Virus record (IMG/VR): IMGVR_UViG_3300031991_000033
DNA length: 64,000 nt
Source: a virus
Reading direction: 5' to 3' (one strand)
Within the stretch, counting starts at the first letter, position 1. Every line of letters starts with the position of its first letter. Of this stretch, positions 5,026 through 48,895 are shown piece after piece. The position numbers and the translations under genes were made by a program. Below the pieces are notes generated by a model. It saw only the letters and a program-made list of their open reading frames with translations, ran no database searches and was not told where the DNA came from.

Positions 5026-5061
5026 CACAAAGATTGTAATACCCAATTTGCGAGGTAAAAA

Positions 5062-6528
5062 ATGAATTACAATGCGAAGTTTTTGAACGAAGCTAAAGAG
5101 GTTGAGTCCAAGTGGGCACAGACCAAGCTTCTCGGCGGCATTGGTGATCGCTTTACCCGTTCGGCCACGGCTGTTCTCCTTGAGAACCAGCACCTAGCTA
5201 ACGAGCTTCTTGCAGAAGCCATGACCGACACAGGCGACATCGCTCAGTTTAAGCGTATCAGCATTCCGCTGGTTCGCCGTATCTATCCGCAGTTGATTGC
5301 GAACAAGATCGTTTCCGTGCAGCCGTTGCTCGGTCCAACCGGTCTCGTTTACTACCTGCGTTTCCGTTACAGCAGCAACAAAGGCTCTATGCGTGGTGCC
5401 GATCTTCAGGGTGGATATCCATCTGATGATTCGACCTCGTTGCAGCAGCTTGCTTCCGGTGATGGCAACTTGGATATCTTCTACACCAGCCAGTTCATTC
5501 AGAACGAAACGTCTTCGACGAATCCGGGTGGTGCTAATAGCTGGGTTTCCACTTTTGCACCGCTTGAGCACACTCCGGTTCTTCCGGGTACGCTCACCGG
5601 TACTCTGTATGACGGCACGACTGCTGTTCAGACCTTCGTGGTCAGCAGCAACGGAACCTTCACTTTCACCGACATCGGTACACCAACCATCAAGGCTATC
5701 TCCGCTGGTTCCAGCGTAGACGTTGAGACTGGTGAAGTAACGGTTCAGTGGAACTCTGGTGGTGATCCGGGTGAAAACCACATAGTATGCTCTTACGAGT
5801 ATAACATGGAATGCAACCAAGATTTGCCAGAAGTGAATCTCGTTGTCGAGTCCGAAGAAATTGCTGCTAAGACCCGTAAGCTCAAGGCTGTATGGTCTTA
5901 TGAAGCACAGCAAGACCTTCGCTCTCAGCACAACTTGGACGCTGAAGCAGAGTTGACCGCCGTGCTTGCACAGGAAATCAACTTGGAAATCGACCGTGAA
6001 GTCTTGACCGATTTGCGTAACAACGCTGGTACGGTAGCTGTTTGGGACTTCAACACCGCCTTCGGTGACACCATCAAGGAAAAGTATGAGTCCTTGTATG
6101 TTAAGGTTGTCGAAGTGTCGAACGTCGTTCACCGTAAGACCCTTCGTGGTGGTTGCAACTGGCTTGTAACCTCTCCTGAAGTGGCATCGATCTTCGAAAC
6201 CGCCACGGCTGGTTTCGCACCGGCTCCGTCTGAAACCTTTACCAGCAGCTTGGGTATCCAATACGTTGGTACGGTTAACAACAGATGGCGTCTGTACAAA
6301 GACCCACTGTTCCCACAGGGACAGATTCTTATGGGTTACAAGGGCGACTCTTACATGGATAGTGGATACTTCTACTGCCCATACGTGCCGCTCACACAGA
6401 CTCCAACGGTGCTTGACCCAGAGTCCTTCTGCCCACGTAAGGGTATCCTTACCCGATACGGCAAGAAGCTTCTCCGTGAGGGGGCAAAGTTTTATGCCCG
6501 CATGTCCATCGCCAACTTCATCGTATAA
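5062..6528 (+). CDS. major capsid protein, T4 gp23-like
   Basis: LLENQ, LVRRxxPxLIA..VQPL.GPTG, AKTRKLKAVWS.EAQQDL, EINLEIDRE, YCPYVPL and GILTRYG motifs; biased codon usage. Confidence 0.97.
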   Translation: MNYNAKFLNEAKEVESKWAQTKLLGGIGDRFTRSATAVLLENQHLANELLAEAMTDTGDIAQFKRISIPLVRRIYPQLIANKIVSVQPLLGPTGLVYYLRFRYSSNKGSMRGADLQGGYPSDDSTSLQQLASGDGNLDIFYTSQFIQNETSSTNPGGANSWVSTFAPLEHTPVLPGTLTGTLYDGTTAVQTFVVSSNGTFTFTDIGTPTIKAISAGSSVDVETGEVTVQWNSGGDPGENHIVCSYEYNMECNQDLPEVNLVVESEEIAAKTRKLKAVWSYEAQQDLRSQHNLDAEAELTAVLAQEINLEIDREVLTDLRNNAGTVAVWDFNTAFGDTIKEKYESLYVKVVEVSNVVHRKTLRGGCNWLVTSPEVASIFETATAGFAPAPSETFTSSLGIQYVGTVNNRWRLYKDPLFPQGQILMGYKGDSYMDSGYFYCPYVPLTQTPTVLDPESFCPRKGILTRYGKKLLREGAKFYARMSIANFIV

Positions 6529-11709: not shown

Positions 11710-12153
11710 ATGAAACTTCCAGACTTTGTAATCGAAAGGTTTCACATGTTCAATAAATGGCTTAAAAAACGAGAAGTTCCGCAAGAACCACAGCTTCCCA
11801 CGACATTTGAAGAAGCTGCACAGTTTGTCGCAGATCGCATCGAAGCTGACACGGTTCAGCAACCAATGTTTCACATGACGGGAGGAATGGCGGTACGTAA
11901 CTCTCTTGGTTTATGGGATAAAGAAAGCCCCTTGCATAAGCACATGAAGGAGAGATTCGGCTTGTGCCATGCCGACGATACAGGGAGTTTAATCACAAAT
12001 GCTGCACATGCTATCAAGAACGGTCAAGAATACGATCCGCAGGCTGACATCGAGCGTTTCAAGAAGCATTGGCTCTTTATGGGTTACGATCCTGCCACTA
12101 TGGAAAAGATCGGCGACACCCCAGACAGTTTCACAATCGTCGTCACCCGTTGA
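11710..12153 (+). CDS. conserved hypothetical protein
   Basis: GMAVRNSLGLW...HADD pattern; 147-aa ORF. Confidence 0.7.
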   Translation: MKLPDFVIERFHMFNKWLKKREVPQEPQLPTTFEEAAQFVADRIEADTVQQPMFHMTGGMAVRNSLGLWDKESPLHKHMKERFGLCHADDTGSLITNAAHAIKNGQEYDPQADIERFKKHWLFMGYDPATMEKIGDTPDSFTIVVTR

Positions 12154-12361
12154 ATTTACACGCATCAGTATCCCTCTGGTGCGTCGAATTTACCCACAGC
12201 TTATAGCAAGTCAAATTATAGAAGTTCAACCCTTACAAGGTCCAACCTCTTTAATTTACTACTTGCGACATCAATACTCAACCAATAGCGGCGGTCGTCG
12301 TGTACTCGCACATACCGTAGAAAAACCGGAAGACGTGGATTGGGTTAAGGAAGGATTCTGA
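12149..12361 (+). CDS. MCP N-terminal fragment paralog ending WVKEGF (start codon uncertain)
   Basis: 33/44 aa identical to MCP residues 63-106; ends EDVDWVKEGF*; the nearest in-frame ATGs (11999, 12008) lie inside the upstream gene. Confidence 0.75.
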   Translation, partial: VEFTRISIPLVRRIYPQLIASQIIEVQPLQGPTSLIYYLRHQYSTNSGGRRVLAHTVEKPEDVDWVKEGF

Positions 12362-12609
12362 TGACCAATCCGTTTCACCCGGAAATTGAGTTGAATATCG
12401 AAACAACTGTGATCCGTGCTCAACGCCGCAAGTTAAAAGCGACGTGGACGATGGATGTGGAGATTGTCCGACCCGATCCCGCCACCATTGAAGCTCTTAC
12501 AAGAATTGTACTCGACGAATGGAACGCTACCGTGGAAAATATGACCCAAGGTTACGTAACCATATTTGACGAAGAGTACCTTGATGAATGGGTCAAGGAG
12601 GGCTTCTGA
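12361..12609 (+). CDS. MCP mid-region fragment paralog ending WVKEGF
   Basis: PEIELNIETTVIRAQRRKLKATW vs MCP 256-278 (12/23 identical); TGATG coupling; ends DEWVKEGF*. Confidence 0.8.
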   Translation: MTNPFHPEIELNIETTVIRAQRRKLKATWTMDVEIVRPDPATIEALTRIVLDEWNATVENMTQGYVTIFDEEYLDEWVKEGF

Positions 12610-12944
12610 TGTCTTATGCCGATCCAATAGACCCTAATGAACGACCACATTACAACAACCGTGGGATAATTACGAGGTATGCCCCTAAGTTGTTGAAAGA
12701 TGCGGCGAAGTTCTATTCAAGAATAGAAATACGCAACAATCCCAACCCGCCACAGCCGAATCTCAACAACGACATATTTCCCGTCCGTGCGAATGATTTT
12801 ATAGACGCTGGCTACATCTTCACACCTTATGTGCCGTTGATGAGTACACCGCCAGTTTTAGACCCCGATTACATGTCACGTCGGGTGGAACGAGTTGAAG
12901 TTGAAAAAGCGGAAGATGTTGATTGGGTCAAGGAAGGATTCTAA
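12609..12944 (+). CDS. MCP C-terminal fragment paralog (segments swapped) ending WVKEGF
   Basis: matches MCP 460-485 (15/26) and then MCP 430-454 (14/25); ends EDVDWVKEGF*. Confidence 0.8.
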   Translation: MSYADPIDPNERPHYNNRGIITRYAPKLLKDAAKFYSRIEIRNNPNPPQPNLNNDIFPVRANDFIDAGYIFTPYVPLMSTPPVLDPDYMSRRVERVEVEKAEDVDWVKEGF

Positions 12945-24993: not shown

Positions 24994-25032
24994 AAAAGGG
25001 TGCCTACACTTTGTATGTAGGCACCCTTTTTG
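24994..25032 (+). terminator. rho-independent terminator
   Basis: aaaagggtgcctaca-ctttgta-tgtaggcaccctttt. Confidence 0.88.
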
Positions 25033-25046
25033 TTTGGAGTGTTACA

Positions 25047-25436
25047 ATGATTGTATTATCTGATCGCCAAAGAATCATAGTACAAGCAATCTTCGACCGT
25101 ATCGATGAAACAAGAGATCGTGAAATTGCTGAGATCGAGGAACGTAACTATGTAAGACTGGTTGAGATCAACGAGACTTGTGCTCAACGATTGGCTGAGA
25201 TAGACGCCCAAAAAGAAATTAGGCGTAAGGAACACGAAGAAAAAATGACGGCAATTCGAGCTAGATACGATGCAGAGATTGCCGCTATTGAAGATGAACA
25301 TTTTAGACGTGTTGAAGAAATAGAACTCATGCATCGTCGGCGTTTGGATATGTTGCAAACAGCCTCATTCGGTGTCGATGAGGAAAATGCCACAAACGAG
25401 TTTGACCACATAAATTGGATCAAAGAAGGGTTCTGA
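25047..25436 (+). CDS. coiled-coil protein ending WIKEGF
   Basis: GGAG RBS; charged helical repeats; ends DHINWIKEGF*. Confidence 0.75.
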   Translation: MIVLSDRQRIIVQAIFDRIDETRDREIAEIEERNYVRLVEINETCAQRLAEIDAQKEIRRKEHEEKMTAIRARYDAEIAAIEDEHFRRVEEIELMHRRRLDMLQTASFGVDEENATNEFDHINWIKEGF

Positions 25437-25792
25437 TGTTAAGTTTGGAGCAGATCATCAAATCGATCTTCGCTCACGACCAAGCTGATCGAGATCGTGA
25501 CGCTCAGTCTCAGTATTTCTCGGCAGTTGATCGGAATCCCGGTCGAGCAGTTCATCGACATCATGTTGAAGCTCAAGCTGGCGGCATCACAAGACAATCT
25601 CTTAATGATGCTTTTCGCATCATCAATCAACGCAATTATGATTGGAACGCTCATCATAATGTTCCTATGAATTTTGATCGTGAAGCTCTTGATCAAATGT
25701 TCGCACAATACGCTGATACAATCGTCACCCCATCGCCTCCCGAACCAGAAGATTCCGCCGATGAGGTAAATTGGATCAAAGAAGGATTCTGA
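25436..25792 (+). CDS. hypothetical protein ending WIKEGF
   Basis: TGATG coupling; Pro/acidic linker then DEVNWIKEGF*. Confidence 0.75.
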   Translation: MLSLEQIIKSIFAHDQADRDRDAQSQYFSAVDRNPGRAVHRHHVEAQAGGITRQSLNDAFRIINQRNYDWNAHHNVPMNFDREALDQMFAQYADTIVTPSPPEPEDSADEVNWIKEGF

Positions 25793-27550: not shown

Positions 27551-27961
27551 ATGAAGCTCTATTTCGACGGCTCTTGTGGACCGAAAAATCCCGGTGGTTA
27601 CGCTTGCTGGGCATTCGTGATCATCAAGGACGGCAAAGAAATTGCCCGCAGAACCGGGATTGAATGCCAAGGTGAAGGAGCAACGAACAACGTGGCTGAG
27701 TACGCAGGTTTGAAACATGGTTTGCAGTACATGATCCAAGAAAACATCACGCAAGAAGTTGAAATTTTTGGCGATTCAAAACTTGTAATCAGCCAAGTTA
27801 ACGGTGAATGGAAATGCAAATCTGCTCATTTGAAACTCTGGTTAGAAATGATCCACGAGTTGCTGAATCAATTCAGTTTGTGGAGTGCGAATTGGGTTCC
27901 ACGCAATGAGAACTCGTTAGCAGACGGTCTTTCTAAATGGGAATCAGTTGTCAATGCGTGA
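27551..27961 (+). CDS. rnhA: ribonuclease HI
   Basis: YFDGS..NPG, TNNVAEY, GDSKLVI.Q..G.W and WVPR..N..AD. Confidence 0.92.
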   Translation: MKLYFDGSCGPKNPGGYACWAFVIIKDGKEIARRTGIECQGEGATNNVAEYAGLKHGLQYMIQENITQEVEIFGDSKLVISQVNGEWKCKSAHLKLWLEMIHELLNQFSLWSANWVPRNENSLADGLSKWESVVNA

Positions 27962-28268
27962 ATACAGTGCCCTCGACCGGATGAATATCCGCCGTGCAGT
28001 CATCCACACCAGAGATACAATCAAGAATATCATCCAAGACTGTATCGGCGACGGTGAACTTGAGGGCGTTGTCGAAGACATAGAAGAATATCTCCAATGT
28101 TCTGGTCACTACTTGAGCTATTGGAGCGACTACATCATGGATTATAACCCCGATGGGTATCTTACGATAAAACTCTTTTGGAAGGGCGATCATTGTGCTA
28201 CAATCACCTTCCGCAGCGTCACGGGCACATACGTCGAAGACGTTGATTGGGTAAAAGAAGGATTCTGA
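27954..28268 (+). CDS. protein resembling the tail-sheath C-terminal domain, ending WVKEGF
   Basis: SALDRMNIRR resembles the sheath motif SALDRINVRR; ends EDVDWVKEGF*. Confidence 0.7.
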   Translation: MREYSALDRMNIRRAVIHTRDTIKNIIQDCIGDGELEGVVEDIEEYLQCSGHYLSYWSDYIMDYNPDGYLTIKLFWKGDHCATITFRSVTGTYVEDVDWVKEGF

Positions 28269-28269
28269 A

Positions 28270-29325
28270 ATGCGTATCGAAGAAGATGTGAAGCTCGATT
28301 TCTGCGATGTTCTCATTCGCCCCAAACGATCTGAAAGTCCCAGCCGGTCTGGAATCGATCTGTTTCGAGATTACACATTCAAAAACAGCGGTAAGCAATG
28401 GCACGGTGTTCCAGTCATGGCTTCCAATATGGACACCGTTGGAACTTTCGCAATGGCTCACGCCCTTGCAAAGTTTCAGATGCAAACTTGCTTACACAAA
28501 CATTATTCAATCAGCCGCTTGATTGATTACTTCTCCAACACTTCCTTAGAAACCGTTTGTCACACTTTCTATACACTTGGGATCATGGAAGAAGACTATG
28601 CCAAGTTTAAGGAAGTCTACGAAGCATCCGATAAACGAATCGAGAACGTTTGTATCGATGTTGCCAACGGTTACAGTGCTTTCTTTGTTGACCGAGTAAA
28701 GCAGTTCCGAAACAAGTTTCCAGAAGTCAACATCATGGCTGGCAATGTTGCAACGCCAGAGATGGTACAAGAGTTGATCTTCAACGGGGTAGACATTGTA
28801 AAGGTAGGTATTGGACCCGGAAGTGTTTGTATCACCCGTAAGGTAGCTGGTGTTGGGTATCCACAGCTATCTGCTGTTATCGAGTGTGCTGATGCCGCTC
28901 ACGGGCTTGGTGGTCACGTCTGTTCTGATGGTGGTTGCCAAATGCCGGGAGATGTTGGTAAGGCATTTGGTGCCGGTGCAGATTTTGTAATGCTTGGTGG
29001 AATGTTTGCCGGGTGTGACGAATGCGAAGGTGATTGGGAGTACAGCGAAGAAGATGGAACAGCCAAAACTGCTCTCACCTTTTACGGCATGTCTTCTGCA
29101 CACGCTATGGACAAATACAATGGTGGTGTCGCCAGCTATCGTGCCCCAGAAGGCAAGCTGGTGTCAGTGCCTTATAAAGGCTTTGTGGAAGGCGTGGCTC
29201 AAGAGATTCTAGGCGGACTTAGAAGTGCCTGTACTTACGTTGGTGCTTTGAAACTCAAAGATTTGAGCAAATGCACTACGTTTGTGAAGGTGAATCAGAC
29301 TCACAATCATGTTTTTGGATCGTGA
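28270..29325 (+). CDS. guaC: GMP reductase
   Basis: [41 protein letters not shown] and FYGMSS. Confidence 0.95.
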
Positions 29326-29690: not shown

Positions 29691-30207
29691 AGATACACGC
29701 AATGTGATTGACTACTATAAGTATTGGGAAACCGAAGCGATTCGTGCTGATCTCGATACAAAGCGTCACAATTTTTCAGTCTTGATCTCGAACAAGTTCC
29801 ATGATTTCAACATTGGAACTGTGATTCGCAACTCGAACGCTTTTATGGCACAGGCGGTTCTTATTTATGGACGCCGCCAATTCGATAAGCGTGGTACAGT
29901 CGGAGCACACCATTATCAGAACATCAACTTCCTCCGAGAGATTGAGGAAGTTGTTTTCCCAGAAGATTACTGCATCGTAGCTATCGAAAACGATGATGAC
30001 GCCGTTCCTGTGGAGACTTTCCAATGGCCAAAGGATCGTCATGTTGTGATGATCTTTGGTCAAGAGTCTGAAGGTGTGCCGCCAGAGCTATTGAAGATTG
30101 CTCAACACAAGGTCTACATCAAGCAGTATGGCAGCACTCGCAGCCTGAATGTCGGCTGTGCCAGTGCGATTGCGATGTACGACTATTGTCGCAAGGTGAT
30201 TGATTAA
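29683..30207 (+). CDS. SpoU/TrmH-family RNA 2'-O-methyltransferase
   Basis: NIGTVIR, FGQESEGV and SLNV..AS.IAMY SPOUT motifs. Confidence 0.9.
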   Translation: MTEDTRNVIDYYKYWETEAIRADLDTKRHNFSVLISNKFHDFNIGTVIRNSNAFMAQAVLIYGRRQFDKRGTVGAHHYQNINFLREIEEVVFPEDYCIVAIENDDDAVPVETFQWPKDRHVVMIFGQESEGVPPELLKIAQHKVYIKQYGSTRSLNVGCASAIAMYDYCRKVID

Positions 30208-30758
30208 GGGTGAAGTTGATCAATCATAAAGAGCGGTACGGCATCTTCGATGATGCGTGCGTACTTTTCGCTGGCTTCAATGTTGAAGATAACACGAATG
30301 CGTTTCTTTGTAACGCTTTTCGTGCATGTCATGTACATGCTGTTGAAGTAGTCTAGCACAATGTCTGTGCCTTCTTCTTGGAGCTTGGTCGTGTTGAGAT
30401 AGATGTTTTTGTTTCCACGACCACAGCGACCGCCGCCGTCCAAGTACCAGACCATAAGTGCTGTGTACTTTAATGGATGAAGCAACTCGTCCGAAACGGT
30501 GCGGTCTTTCTCCGCATACGCAATGTCATGGAGTTCTGTGAACTCCTCATTGCATATCGAATTACACCGATAAGTTGATTTTTCTAAGCGTAATTGGTCG
30601 TTCTGAAAGAAGCCTTCCAACTCTTGCATTTTATAATGCAACCAGAGTGGGTTGTTACTTCTCATGGAGAGATAGTAGTTCACTCCTCTTGGCGGTTTCA
30701 CAATAGACGAGCCACCTAGAACCGTGCCAATCACGATATCTCTTTGCGTTTCTGTCAT
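30204..30758 (-). CDS. free-standing LAGLIDADG endonuclease-like protein
   Basis: IVIGTVLGGSSI and ALMVWYLDGG are the two LAGLIDADG-type helices, both degenerate. Confidence 0.75.
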   Translation of the reverse strand: MTETQRDIVIGTVLGGSSIVKPPRGVNYYLSMRSNNPLWLHYKMQELEGFFQNDQLRLEKSTYRCNSICNEEFTELHDIAYAEKDRTVSDELLHPLKYTALMVWYLDGGGRCGRGNKNIYLNTTKLQEEGTDIVLDYFNSMYMTCTKSVTKKRIRVIFNIEASEKYARIIEDAVPLFMIDQLHP

Positions 30759-46516: not shown

Positions 46517-47473
46517 ATGCTCAAAATTCAAGCAAAAGATTACAGTTGCCGACTATTCCTATTCGAGAGGGTAGATTGCCTTTCGATGCAGGAAGTCAAA
46601 CAGAATGTAGGTTGGGGGATTACTGCTTTTGATTTGCCAAAGGCTTGGGAATTCACCCAAGGCGAAGGCGTTGTAATTGCTGTGATTGATACGGGTTGTG
46701 ATTTAGATCATCCTGACCTAAAGGCAAACCTGATTCCGGGTTACAATTTCATTAAGCCCGGCACGCCGCCAGAAGACGATAATGGTCATGGTACGCACGT
46801 AACAGGCACTCTCGTTGCGGAAAACAACACCATTGGAATGGTTGGTGTTTGTCCAAAAGCGAAGGTCATGCCACTCAAAGCTCTTGATCAAGATGGCAAT
46901 GGCAATATGCTTAACATTGCCAAGGCGATTCGGTATGCTGCCAACAACGGTGCCGATTTTATCTCAATGTCTCTTGGGGCACCGATTCCTGTAGGCGAAG
47001 TTCGCAAGGCAATTAAGTATGCACTTGGCAAAGGTGTGATTACATTCGTAGCTGCCGGTAACGTTGGGAATACAAAAGAAGTATTCTATCCAGCCGCCTA
47101 CCCAGAAACGATTGCCGTTGGTGCTGTTGATTTGGAACTACACAGAGCGAGTTTCTCAAACACTGGTAAAAACCTAGATTTCATGGCACCGGGAGTAGAC
47201 ATCTATTCAACGGTTCCCGATGATTGGTATGCCAAGATGAGCGGCACGAGTATGGCACAACCTTTTGTGTGCGGAGTGGCTGCTTTGGTTAAGAGTTATG
47301 TCGTTGTGCATGGCAAACGACCAGATATTGAGTTAAAGACTGCGATTGATTACCGACGCTTGTTGATGGAAAACACTATTCCGGTAAACAATGGAAATTA
47401 TGACGATCCGAAATTTTATCAAGGTTTTGGTATCATCGATCCACGTAAGTTTATGGAATCAATCAAGCGTTAA
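46517..47473 (+). CDS. subtilisin-like S8 serine protease
   Basis: VIDTG, HGTHV.G, AAGN and SGTSMA catalytic motifs. Confidence 0.95.
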   Translation: MLKIQAKDYSCRLFLFERVDCLSMQEVKQNVGWGITAFDLPKAWEFTQGEGVVIAVIDTGCDLDHPDLKANLIPGYNFIKPGTPPEDDNGHGTHVTGTLVAENNTIGMVGVCPKAKVMPLKALDQDGNGNMLNIAKAIRYAANNGADFISMSLGAPIPVGEVRKAIKYALGKGVITFVAAGNVGNTKEVFYPAAYPETIAVGAVDLELHRASFSNTGKNLDFMAPGVDIYSTVPDDWYAKMSGTSMAQPFVCGVAALVKSYVVVHGKRPDIELKTAIDYRRLLMENTIPVNNGNYDDPKFYQGFGIIDPRKFMESIKR

Positions 47474-47861
47474 AATCCTTCTTTGATCCAGTCAACCTCT
47501 TCAGCCGGAAGTGTTCGTTCGAGCTTCCGGCTGGCTTTTTGTAGTGCCCAATATCTTAACCAATCGCTCTCTGGTGAGTTCTCGCCCGGTTCTCGCCCGG
47601 TTCTCGAATATGGCGTAGAATTTCTGAAAATCGATTTGGGACATCTCGCAGGCGAATGCGTCCCATTCCTTGTCTGACAGGATTTTCTGGATGTTGCACA
47701 AATTCTACAATGTCGCCGACAATCAAGTATTCTCCTTGATCATCCATGAAAGATAAAGGTCTTTTGGTTGAGTAAGACCTTTCTTCGTAGTAATCGTAGC
47801 AAGCAAAATGAATTGTTTGATCAATTATGCTGACTACTTCTCCAACAACGATGTCAGACAC
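47470..47861 (-). pseudogene. WIKEGF-tagged protein frameshifted by an 11-bp tandem duplication
   Basis: GGAGG RBS plus GTG at 47861; removing one gttctcgcccg unit gives ...REPGENSPESDWLRYWALQKASRKLERTLPAEEVDWIKEGF*. Confidence 0.75.
47578..47606. repeat. 11-bp tandem repeat (gttctcgcccg x2.6)
   Basis: read directly from the sequence. Confidence 0.95.
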
Positions 47862-48316
47862 TTGAATACCTCCAATAGATAATTCACGGTGTATTCGTAC
47901 AAGCCGGGGCACTTGGACTCTCGATTCCCAGCGACGTTCAAGATTTTGATATCGTTGTCCAGAATCCATCTTGCAACCTTCTCGTGTTCTTGGGGTGCAT
48001 GTACGCTTACATCATAGTACGGCTTTCCATACTGTTCAATAGCTTTGAGTGTACAAATTTCACCAGCACTGTAGAAATTATGGGCAAATCGGATTGTCCC
48101 GTCAGAATCTCGTGCATTGGCGTGCGTTCGAGGAACATAACTAGAAGAAGAGTGTTCTACGATTCCGTAGAGATCGGCAAGATCGGGGCGTGGTCCATCT
48201 TCAGTAAGAAAACCTTTAGGAATCCAGCCGCCAGTTTCGAGACCGAAACGCTTGGCAGCTTCCAAACCGCCTTGATCAGCACCCGTTTGAGCACCTGATA
48301 CAATCTTTGTAAGCAT
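47834..48316 (-). CDS. SLOG-superfamily (putative molybdenum-carrier-like) protein
   Basis: KIVSGAQTGAD.GGL, GGWIPKGF..EDG, N.RDSDGT and LNVAGNRES. Confidence 0.85.
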   Translation of the reverse strand: MLTKIVSGAQTGADQGGLEAAKRFGLETGGWIPKGFLTEDGPRPDLADLYGIVEHSSSSYVPRTHANARDSDGTIRFAHNFYSAGEICTLKAIEQYGKPYYDVSVHAPQEHEKVARWILDNDIKILNVAGNRESKCPGLYEYTVNYLLEVFKCLTSLLEK

Positions 48317-48317
48317 C

Positions 48318-48638
48318 TCAAAATCCTTCTTTGACCCAATCAACTTCGGAATATGCAACGCCTTGATTGGAGAGGCATTGAATGTAGTCGTTTAGACTAC
48401 CGTGATTGTCTTTTATGAAACGCAATGTTTTGGGTTCTTGGTTTTGTGAAACCACCCAAGTGAATTCATCCGACAATAGTTTAGACTCAGTGATTATCAC
48501 GCCATGAATTGCTGAGTGGTGCAATAACCGAGTTTTGATGAAACTTACGGCTTCTGAGAAAGAGTGGAAGTAGTAATCTTCAAGATGACCCATCCATTCA
48601 ATGAATCCGTAATACTTTATAGTCCTTCTTTTATCCAT
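48318..48638 (-). CDS. hypothetical protein ending WVKEGF
   Basis: ends SEVDWVKEGF*. Confidence 0.7.
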   Translation of the reverse strand: MDKRRTIKYYGFIEWMGHLEDYYFHSFSEAVSFIKTRLLHHSAIHGVIITESKLLSDEFTWVVSQNQEPKTLRFIKDNHGSLNDYIQCLSNQGVAYSEVDWVKEGF

Positions 48639-48895
48639 TCGTCTGAGTCCATTGGCACATTTTTGACATGTGCAAAGTGTTCAATGTCAGGGATTCCAGA
48701 CTCAGGATGTGGGGTGACTTTGAAGCCAAACACAACTTCTGCACCCTTTACAAGCCCAGATTTCTCTGGTGGCTCGTATCTGTTAGGGAACAAGTCAAGA
48801 CCTATCACACGCTTAAGGTTGTTGGCTTTTACAAGCACAACGCCCTCTCGCCTGTCGATAGTAACAATTTCTCCGTGATGTTCTTTTACAGTCAT
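48617..48895 (-). CDS. small beta-rich (OB-like?) protein ending WIKEGL
   Basis: ATGA coupling to the McsA-like gene; ends DSDEWIKEGL*. Confidence 0.7.
   Translation of the reverse strand: MTVKEHHGEIVTIDRREGVVLVKANNLKRVIGLDLFPNRYEPPEKSGLVKGAEVVFGFKVTPHPESGIPDIEHFAHVKNVPMDSDEWIKEGL

Follow-up and report, generated by a model that had tools for sequence, protein, structure and literature searches.

We analysed a 64,000-nucleotide stretch of viral DNA from IMG/VR record IMGVR_UViG_3300031991_000033; this whole stretch is called the window below. Between a gene for RNase H and a gene for GMP reductase, the window encodes a protein of 104 amino acids, referred to here as the target. Its open reading frame (ORF) lies on the plus strand, starts with ATG at 27954 and stops at 28266–28268. 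The C-terminus of the protein, EDVDWVKEGF, belongs to a short ending that also closes several other proteins of the same window, and we call this ending the tag. An earlier note on this DNA had reported the same ORF and tag, and both were confirmed. The note proposed, from the letters alone, that the protein resembles the C-terminal domain of the phage tail sheath. We read the target as the C-terminal ("handshake") domain of the phage's own tail sheath in a diverged, free-standing copy that may act as a competitive look-alike of that domain. We give this reading as a whole a probability of roughly 0.7.

The three genes are packed closely. The end of the RNase H gene overlaps the start of the target gene by 8 nt, and the start codon of the GMP reductase gene (28270) lies 1 nt past the target stop, so that RNase H, target and GMP reductase look translationally coupled. 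The window is part of a 157,792-bp viral record, which is estimated to be 31% complete. Relatives of its sheath are found on contigs of 245–459 kb among the loci that we fetched and of up to 693 kb in the protein-search table, and one orthologue of the target (P0006) is on a 622-kb contig. These sizes indicate that the record is a fragment of the genome of a very large phage.

Sequence similarity to the sheath C-terminal domain

As the earlier note had said, there is no sheath gene in the window. The phage's own sheath gene is located elsewhere in the record (G000:C1:99304-101676), about 65 kb from the target. It is a frame of 790 amino acids with the Pfam domains Phage_sheath_1 and Phage_sheath_1C, and its match to the latter (PF17482) has an expectation value (E) of 2.8e-15. 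The C-terminal region of this sheath is homologous to residues 513–649 of T4-type gp18 and is only about 35% identical to it there.

Among the six-frame ORFs of the genome, the best blastp match of the target apart from the tag was the sheath, at an E of only 0.32. In this alignment target residues 2–24 pair with sheath residues 674–697, and the two proteins have the motif ALDRxNxRR in common (ALDRMNIRR in the target, ALDRINVRR in the sheath). The counterpart in T4-type gp18 is FDRINVRR, and the same residues are invariant between the own sheath and T4-type gp18. Shuffled targets reached the observed Smith-Waterman score 10 times in 2000 when aligned with the whole sheath, and once in 2000 when aligned with the final 135 residues of the sheath. 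In the six-frame genome (242,796 residues), the pattern DR[ILVM]N[ILVM]RR has exactly two occurrences, one in the sheath and one in the target ORF. It does not occur in the 386,076 residues of the other fetched non-sheath loci.

A profile made from 81 close sheath relatives of the clade placed the target second in the genome (E 0.057). A more diverse profile was built from 14 sheath C-terminal domains, six of them from clade sheaths and eight from cultured phages (a cyanophage, Campylobacter, Aeromonas, Klebsiella, T4-type, Ackermannviridae, PhiW-14 and an Erwinia jumbo phage). It was run with filters off against all 1388 six-frame genome ORFs of at least 50 amino acids. The sheath was found at 1.2e-67, the target ORF came second at 7.5e-5 and the next best ORF had 0.71. 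The annotated target protein alone scored 13.5 bits (E 0.0035), and none of 3000 shuffles exceeded 4.5 bits. A PHROGs scan of the target returned no sheath match and a weak match to PHROG 31614, a group of unknown function.

With the same diverse profile, the stop-to-stop frame scored 5 bits more than the annotated protein, and the gain came from residues upstream of the start codon. In frame before the ATG, the window reads VFLNGNQLS (27927–27953, plus strand), which resembles the FVIWGQKTL that precedes the sheath domain. Perhaps a longer copy derived from the sheath left this resemblance as a relic; the stretch is at present overlapped by the end of the RNase H gene.

When the target family was compared with the sheath in hhalign, P fell from 0.039 to 0.0098 and then to 0.0015 as data were added; the hhalign probability is still only 17%. 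The register was constant throughout, with target residues 1–98 on the whole domain and the final TG on the TG of the sheath. The earlier note had paired the target with the sheath C-terminus. The ALDR signature supports that pairing, and hhalign places the last strands and the TG in the same register; taken alone, this last part adds little score. A recent gene conversion or DNA copy from the sheath gene was ruled out, as the codons differ at five of the nine identical residues.

Predicted structure and fold searches

The model of the target from its single sequence had a predicted local distance difference test score (pLDDT) of 59.8, with the N-terminal helix unmodelled. The AlphaFold2 model from a five-member alignment reached a pLDDT of 76.4 and a predicted template modelling score of 0.70. 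The alignment behind it held orthologues only and no sheath sequence. The model consists of two helices followed by three strands (residues in Table 1) and a disordered tail, residues 90–104, which carries the tag.

In an exhaustive VIA search of 48,161 PDB representatives, a phage sheath C-terminus was at rank 1. Four more sheath C-termini were within the top 50 (7b5h_AO, 9gb1_1, 9khy_a and 9c39_H). The top 50 also held three small baseplate chains, 6gj1_D (6.1), 9ay5_M (5.1) and 7kh1_A7 (4.8), and the sheath chains scored above them. We take 7kh1_A7 to be XM1 gp15, a homologue of gp25, and two of the three small chains are presumably of the gp25/TssE type.

In the structural alignment with 7b5h_AO, residues 9–78 of the model lie on residues 378–468 of the chain. 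This register was compared with the sequence register at the ALDR and TG anchors, by way of the chain's match to the phage's own sheath, and the two agreed within 1–2 residues. We regard the predicted structure as supportive, not decisive. It has the weight it has because a fold specified beforehand ranked first, and did so in the register predicted from sequence.

Orthologues of the target

An exhaustive phmmer search found four small orthologues of 89–105 amino acids with identities of 31–47%, and a fifth (L119) came from a metagenome scan. Identities for the five are 30–47%. All of them keep the tag, with the variants WIKEGF, WEKEGF, WIQEGF and WIKDGF. A k-mer protein search returned the target protein itself only, and its profile version returned only the five known members. 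With tblastn against 50,697 cultured-phage records, no relative of the target was found (best E 4). The five close sheath relatives G001–G005 have no recognisable orthologue of the target or of its RNase H neighbour.

L101, L102 and L119 all keep the gene order RNase H, target, GMP reductase. L100 differs in having a further tagged gene between the RNase H gene and the orthologue, and no GMP reductase was called there.

The L119 orthologue, which is 31% identical to the target and comes from another metagenome, has SLDRVFIRQ at the position of the signature. In the same register, it matches the sheath profile with P 8.5e-4. Against the sheath, P0006 has two segments that are weak but collinear and in register. 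P0006 (the orthologue on the 622-kb contig) is 32–35% identical to the target, and the sheath C-terminal domain of P0032 is 90% identical. P0006 and P0032 come from the same sequencing run, with a longest contig of 622,399 bp in both, and they are probably from one phage. From these identities, the target family appears to diverge far faster than the sheath domain.

Assessment of the sheath assignment

We consider it very probable that the target is a diverged stand-alone sheath C-terminal domain. This verdict is based on the profile match, the unique signature and its retention in a second divergent member, the order and lengths of the secondary-structure elements, the TG end and the top structural match. 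The resemblance proposed in the earlier note is thus borne out by the diverse profile, by the motif and by the predicted fold, and similarity to sheath proteins is present both in the profile and in the predicted structure.

Several results weigh on the other side. Pfam Phage_sheath_1C (PF17482) matched neither the target nor its first 41 residues at E up to 10. The signature is missing in three or four of the five orthologues, and an orthologue profile that leaves the target out has no match to the sheath (P 0.86). Foldseek searches of PDB, with both models, and of BFVD gave nothing at E <0.04 and no sheath in the top 50. Both ESM Atlas searches, the shape search and the one with the Atlas's own model, returned no sheath; their rows were pilin-like or miscellaneous, with one DUF2634 cluster. 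The VIA search with the low-confidence single-sequence model gave no sheath row.

If the resemblance arose by chance, the target would be an unrelated small alpha/beta tagged protein, and its N-terminal helix would show the sheath motif by coincidence in this single genome. We find this improbable. The profile match is significant at genome scale for the ORF and for the annotated protein, and it was not approached by any shuffle. The motif is unique to the sheath and the target, and a second divergent orthologue keeps it. Moreover, the fold named in advance came first among all the PDB representatives, and the sequence and structure registers coincide at both ends.

A closer relative could be the sheath initiator of the baseplate. 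In that case, the target would be a paralogue of a gp25/TssE-type protein and not a copy of the sheath's own domain. We give this little credence. Pfam GPW_gp25 (PF04965) does not match the target, and canonical gp25 genes are present elsewhere in the relatives G001 and G002. Here and in related phages, the neighbours of the target are RNase H, GMP reductase, SpoU methylase and LAGLIDADG endonuclease genes, with no baseplate module. The DRxNxRR motif and the TG end are features of sheaths, and the sheath chains outscore the small baseplate chains in the VIA search.

The tag and the tagged proteins

The genome record has nine ORFs with the ending W[VI]KEG[FL]-stop, every one of them inside the window (Table 1). 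Their tag codons differ almost only at synonymous sites, which indicates that the tag peptide itself is under selection. Tagged ORFs 1–3 stand in tandem (11999–12944) and correspond, collinearly, to three parts of the phage's own major capsid protein (MCP), which is encoded at 5059–6528 of the window. Tagged ORF 7 and its orthologue in contig G007 have the ending ...RTLPxEVDW[VI]KEGF in common. Tagged ORF 9 contains VFGF...PHPESGIP, which resembles VFGY-PHPESGDP of the own sheath (residues ~60–75). With a full-length sheath profile it was the second-best tagged ORF (P 0.011), a weak match by which it may be a second sheath-derived piece.

Table 1. Features at the target locus and tagged ORFs of the window (positions are those of the window; MCP, major capsid protein)
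Feature	Position	Strand	Basis
Tagged gene for a stand-alone protein like the sheath C-terminal domain (target)	27954..28268, including stop	+	ORF; 5 orthologues
RNase H gene	27551..27961	+	ORF; Pfam RNase_H/RVT_3 on syntenic genes of relatives
GMP reductase (IMPDH family) gene	28270..29325	+	Annotated GMP reductase in Stenotrophomonas phage RAS14; Pfam IMPDH on syntenic genes
Folded body of target, residues 1–91	27954..28226	+	Modelled helices 6–32 and 39–52, strands 59–64, 69–76 and 79–87; ends ...TG
Sheath signature ALDRMNIRR, residues 6–14, at start of helix 1	27969..27995	+	Matches own sheath and T4-type gp18
Disordered tail, residues 92–104	28227..28265	+	pLDDT <50 for residues 90–104
Shared tag EDVDWVKEGF in tail	28236..28265	+	Kept with variants in orthologues
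GAAGGA, Shine-Dalgarno-like, within tag codons	28257..28262	+	7 nt before GMP reductase start codon 28270
Tagged ORF 1, fragment of own capsid protein (MCP 53–112)	11999..12361	+	blastp 58% over 60 amino acids, E 1e-19; Pfam Gp23 E 3e-11
Tagged ORF 2, capsid-protein fragment (MCP 257–312)	12361..12609	+	blastp E 4e-4
Tagged ORF 3, capsid-protein fragment (MCP 408–486)	12588..12944	+	blastp E 1e-6, 1e-5
Tagged ORF 4, Glu/Arg-rich body without assigned origin	25011..25436	+	Paralogue of tagged ORF 5, E 2e-4
Tagged ORF 5, body without assigned origin	25436..25792	+	Tag
Tagged ORF 7, body without assigned origin	47470..47739	-	Orthologue in viral contig G007 (L009, L095, L121)
Tagged ORF 8, body without assigned origin	48318..48638	-	Tag
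Tagged ORF 9, ends WIKEGL	48617..48895	-	Weak match to sheath N-terminal region

We used the relaxed pattern [DN]-W-x-[KEQ]-[ED]-G-F-stop for related phages. It was found seven times in 20 kb of the 622-kb relative, once or twice in three of the five other relatives (G001–G005) and in none of the remaining two. The strict pattern was absent from these five close sheath relatives. The number of tagged genes varies widely between relatives. The relaxed tag was also found in 26 metagenomic stretches. One of these (L124:1-12724, on the 120-kb contig MDTG01031237.1) has 21 tagged ORFs in 12.7 kb, mostly in tandem and mostly of about 150–220 amino acids, with the tag NWQQEGF or a close variant. Four members of this array were tested and showed no significant Pfam family, one of them having sub-threshold matches only.

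Across the 83 tagged ORFs that we collected, the W and G of the tag are invariant and its E and F are at least 90% conserved. A single ORF matches any Pfam family (Gp23), and PHROGs add little. About 18 can be identified by way of virion proteins, namely about 12 that are capsid-derived and six of the sheath-domain family; most of the 83 bodies gave no identification. Tagged capsid fragments are present in three other contigs of related phages, at L100:3785-4962 (minus strand), L118:2999-4005 (minus) and L105:1228-1521 (plus). The fragments in these arrays match residues 40–109, 256–295 and 424–455 of the MCP of this phage. Their recurrence indicates that the clade has conserved the practice of tagging virion-protein pieces.

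The earlier note had suggested that the tagged family samples more than one conserved virion protein. This proved right, with three capsid-protein pieces and the sheath domain in the window and the capsid fragments of the three other contigs. Its idea of a library of structural-protein mimics is supported only in part: two virion proteins are among the bodies, but the idea reaches no further than the minority of ORFs that can be identified. The note had also named portal, terminase, tube and SSB as comparisons for the other tagged ORFs. In six-frame blastp these ORFs gave no convincing match to other ORFs of the genome fragment, and no such mimic was found. The strings WVKEGF and WIKEGF did not occur in the literature searched, which likewise held no description of the target family, of the tag or of tagged virion-protein fragments.

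The C-termini of the clade sheaths (L015–L094) mostly read ...HRTGSF(G/A)ENADTF, that is, an acidic stretch with a terminal Phe. This ending loosely resembles the ...TGTYVEDVDWVKEGF of the target over a length too short to test. The tail of the own sheath, ...TGSFAENADTF, and that of the target, ...TGTYVEDVDW...F, are similar, and we keep only as an idea that the tag might imitate the C-terminal arm of the sheath.

A DUF6794 protein is encoded just upstream of the tagged capsid-fragment array, both in the window (11710–12153, plus strand) and in L100 (L100:5461-5835, minus strand), where a Macro-domain gene lies between. It was considered as the partner of the tag, an idea that was dropped because three other tag-bearing records lack the protein; it is probably not what reads the tag.

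Tag DNA as a putative ribosome-binding site

The codons for K-E-G in the tag spell the Shine-Dalgarno-like sequence GAAGGA. The Gly codon of the tag is GGA in seven of nine cases, compared with 20% of the Gly codons in long ORFs of the genome (P 3e-4). The next start codon overlaps the stop of the tag or follows within 2 nt in six of nine cases, and three tags of the window have no coupled downstream gene. As far as the sequence tells, the tag is dual-coded, serving as a peptide and as a putative ribosome-binding site of the next gene. The latter role cannot explain the conserved W and F.

The target could also be a decaying, functionless leftover of a partial duplication of the 3' end of the sheath gene, with the tag kept only for the ribosome-binding site that its DNA gives the next gene. 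Such a history would fit the still sheath-like frame ahead of the start codon and the bias of the Gly codon to GGA, which puts GAAGGA before the next start codon in those six cases. We nevertheless judge it very improbable. The reading frame is intact in six phages at the identities given above, with its core positions conserved. The W and F lie outside any ribosome-binding site, and yet W is invariant and F at least 90% conserved in the collected ORFs, and three tags of the window lack a coupled downstream gene. A small winged-helix-like regulator unrelated to the sheath is scarcely credible: phmmer against PDB sequences returned only a match of residues 16–61 to the winged-helix region of DDRGK1, which is weak and not significant (E 0.055–0.16), the model has two long helices and a three-stranded sheet, and no winged-helix chain came near the top of the structural searches.

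Other neighbouring genes

A SpoU methylase gene and a LAGLIDADG endonuclease gene usually follow the GMP reductase gene. In the window, an ORF of 184 amino acids (30204–30758, minus strand) corresponds, by position only, to the LAGLIDADG_2 homing-endonuclease gene of L100, L101 and L102. One relative carries an intein inside a UvrD-like helicase (L101:5672-9205). Next to tagged ORFs 7 and 8, a subtilase gene (46517–47473, plus strand; Peptidase_S8, E 6.5e-59) converges tail-to-tail on tagged ORF 7, and a gene for a circularly permuted YpsA/SLOG protein (47834–48358, minus strand) starts 1 nt past tagged ORF 8.

Proposed role of the target

In contractile tails, the sheath C-terminal domain serves as a platform: two subunits of the following ring extend its sheet with their N- and C-terminal arms, and gp25-like initiators such as XM1 gp15 hold the first sheath ring with the same fold (bioRxiv 10.1101/2021.12.18.469577). 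In pyocin of the R-type, the inner domain of the sheath touches the tube by way of an attachment helix (PMC6088184). A soluble copy of the platform, made apart from the tail genes in a nucleotide-metabolism operon, could compete for the ligands of the sheath domain. Since gp25 and TssE start sheath growth with the same fold, such a copy would most likely be a competitive look-alike of the platform.

Three targets of the competition can be envisaged. The protein might bind the arms or the tube that the phage's own sheath binds, as a control of assembly against premature polymerisation. It might instead act on the sheath arms or the tube of a rival phage's tail, or on a host sensor of virion proteins. 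Like shared docking tails elsewhere, the flexible tail would link it to a single partner, common to all tagged proteins as the reader of their tag. The tag codons would double as the ribosome-binding site of the GMP reductase gene. We offer this competitive mechanism as tentative.

A wider version of the proposal would cover the clade, and we hold it to be unlikely as it stands. Here the phages would make address-tagged look-alikes of virion blocks, comprising at least three capsid pieces and the sheath handshake domain, from non-structural operons, with one reader of [DN]WxKEGF. These might serve as decoys of host sensors, or as caps that control or poison the polymerisation of capsid and sheath of the own phage or of a co-infecting rival. 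Conserved folds of virion proteins, among them capsid and tube, are sensed by Avs proteins, which belong to the STAND class, and it has been proposed that the sheath is a target (bioRxiv 10.64898/2026.01.04.697583).

The setting of the domain is a different one here, as the protein is probably soluble, evolves fast, carries a tag, lies in a metabolic operon and is accompanied by tagged capsid fragments in the same genome. The pattern recurs across a clade of phages of 0.45–0.6 Mb. It suggests that parts of a phage's own virion proteins can be put to new use as regulators, weapons or decoys, a timely subject given the recognition of virion folds by STAND/Avs proteins. It also yields concrete proteins and a 7-residue peptide with which the partner of the tag can be sought. 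Should the function be mundane, for example that of a helper in sheath assembly, the target would still be a new accessory factor of tail assembly.

Comparison with known systems

The sheath handshake domain knits contractile tails, pyocins and type VI sheaths together. To our knowledge, the only free-standing relatives of this domain known before are the baseplate initiators gp25 and TssE. The fold is known, and what is new is a free-standing, tagged and rapidly evolving copy of the sheath domain outside the tail module. The tagged system as a whole may be novel beyond that copy.

Compared with sheath C-terminal domains (PF17482; T4 gp18 ~513–649, phi812, Mu, phiCD508 and the Anabaena contractile injection system), the target is predicted to have the same order of two helices and three strands. 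Like them, it carries DRxNxRR where helix 1 begins, and its last strand leads into TG and a short tail. These domains are its best structural match and its significant match in the custom profile, while the Pfam threshold is not reached. However, the sheath domain ends a protein of 790 amino acids, whereas the target stands alone. Relative to the domain, the target lacks about 16 residues, most of them from the loop that joins strands 1 and 2. Its gene lies with those for RNase H and GMP reductase and not with the tube gene; in a related phage, a gp19-like tube gene follows the sheath gene. Unlike the sheath domain, it evolves much faster and ends in a tail with a shared tag.

The initiators gp25, TssE and XM1 gp15 (PF04965) are free-standing like the target, with about 110–130 amino acids, and have the fold of the sheath C-terminal domain. 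They are the platform for the arms of sheath subunits and are structural neighbours of the target model. In contrast to them, the target has the sheath motif and the tag, lies outside a baseplate cluster and gives no match to their sequence profile, and relatives of the phage have canonical gp25 in addition.

Short C-terminal docking tails on unlike proteins are known from bacterial SSB, which ends in ...DDDIPF, from T7 gp2.5 and gp4, which are acidic and end in Phe, and from clamp-binding peptides. The tag, [DN]WxKEGF, is not known to match any of the SSB, T7 gp2.5/gp4 or clamp-binding motifs. Like those docking tails, it is acidic and predicted to be disordered, has a terminal aromatic residue with a free carboxylate, and is carried by many unrelated bodies in one genome.

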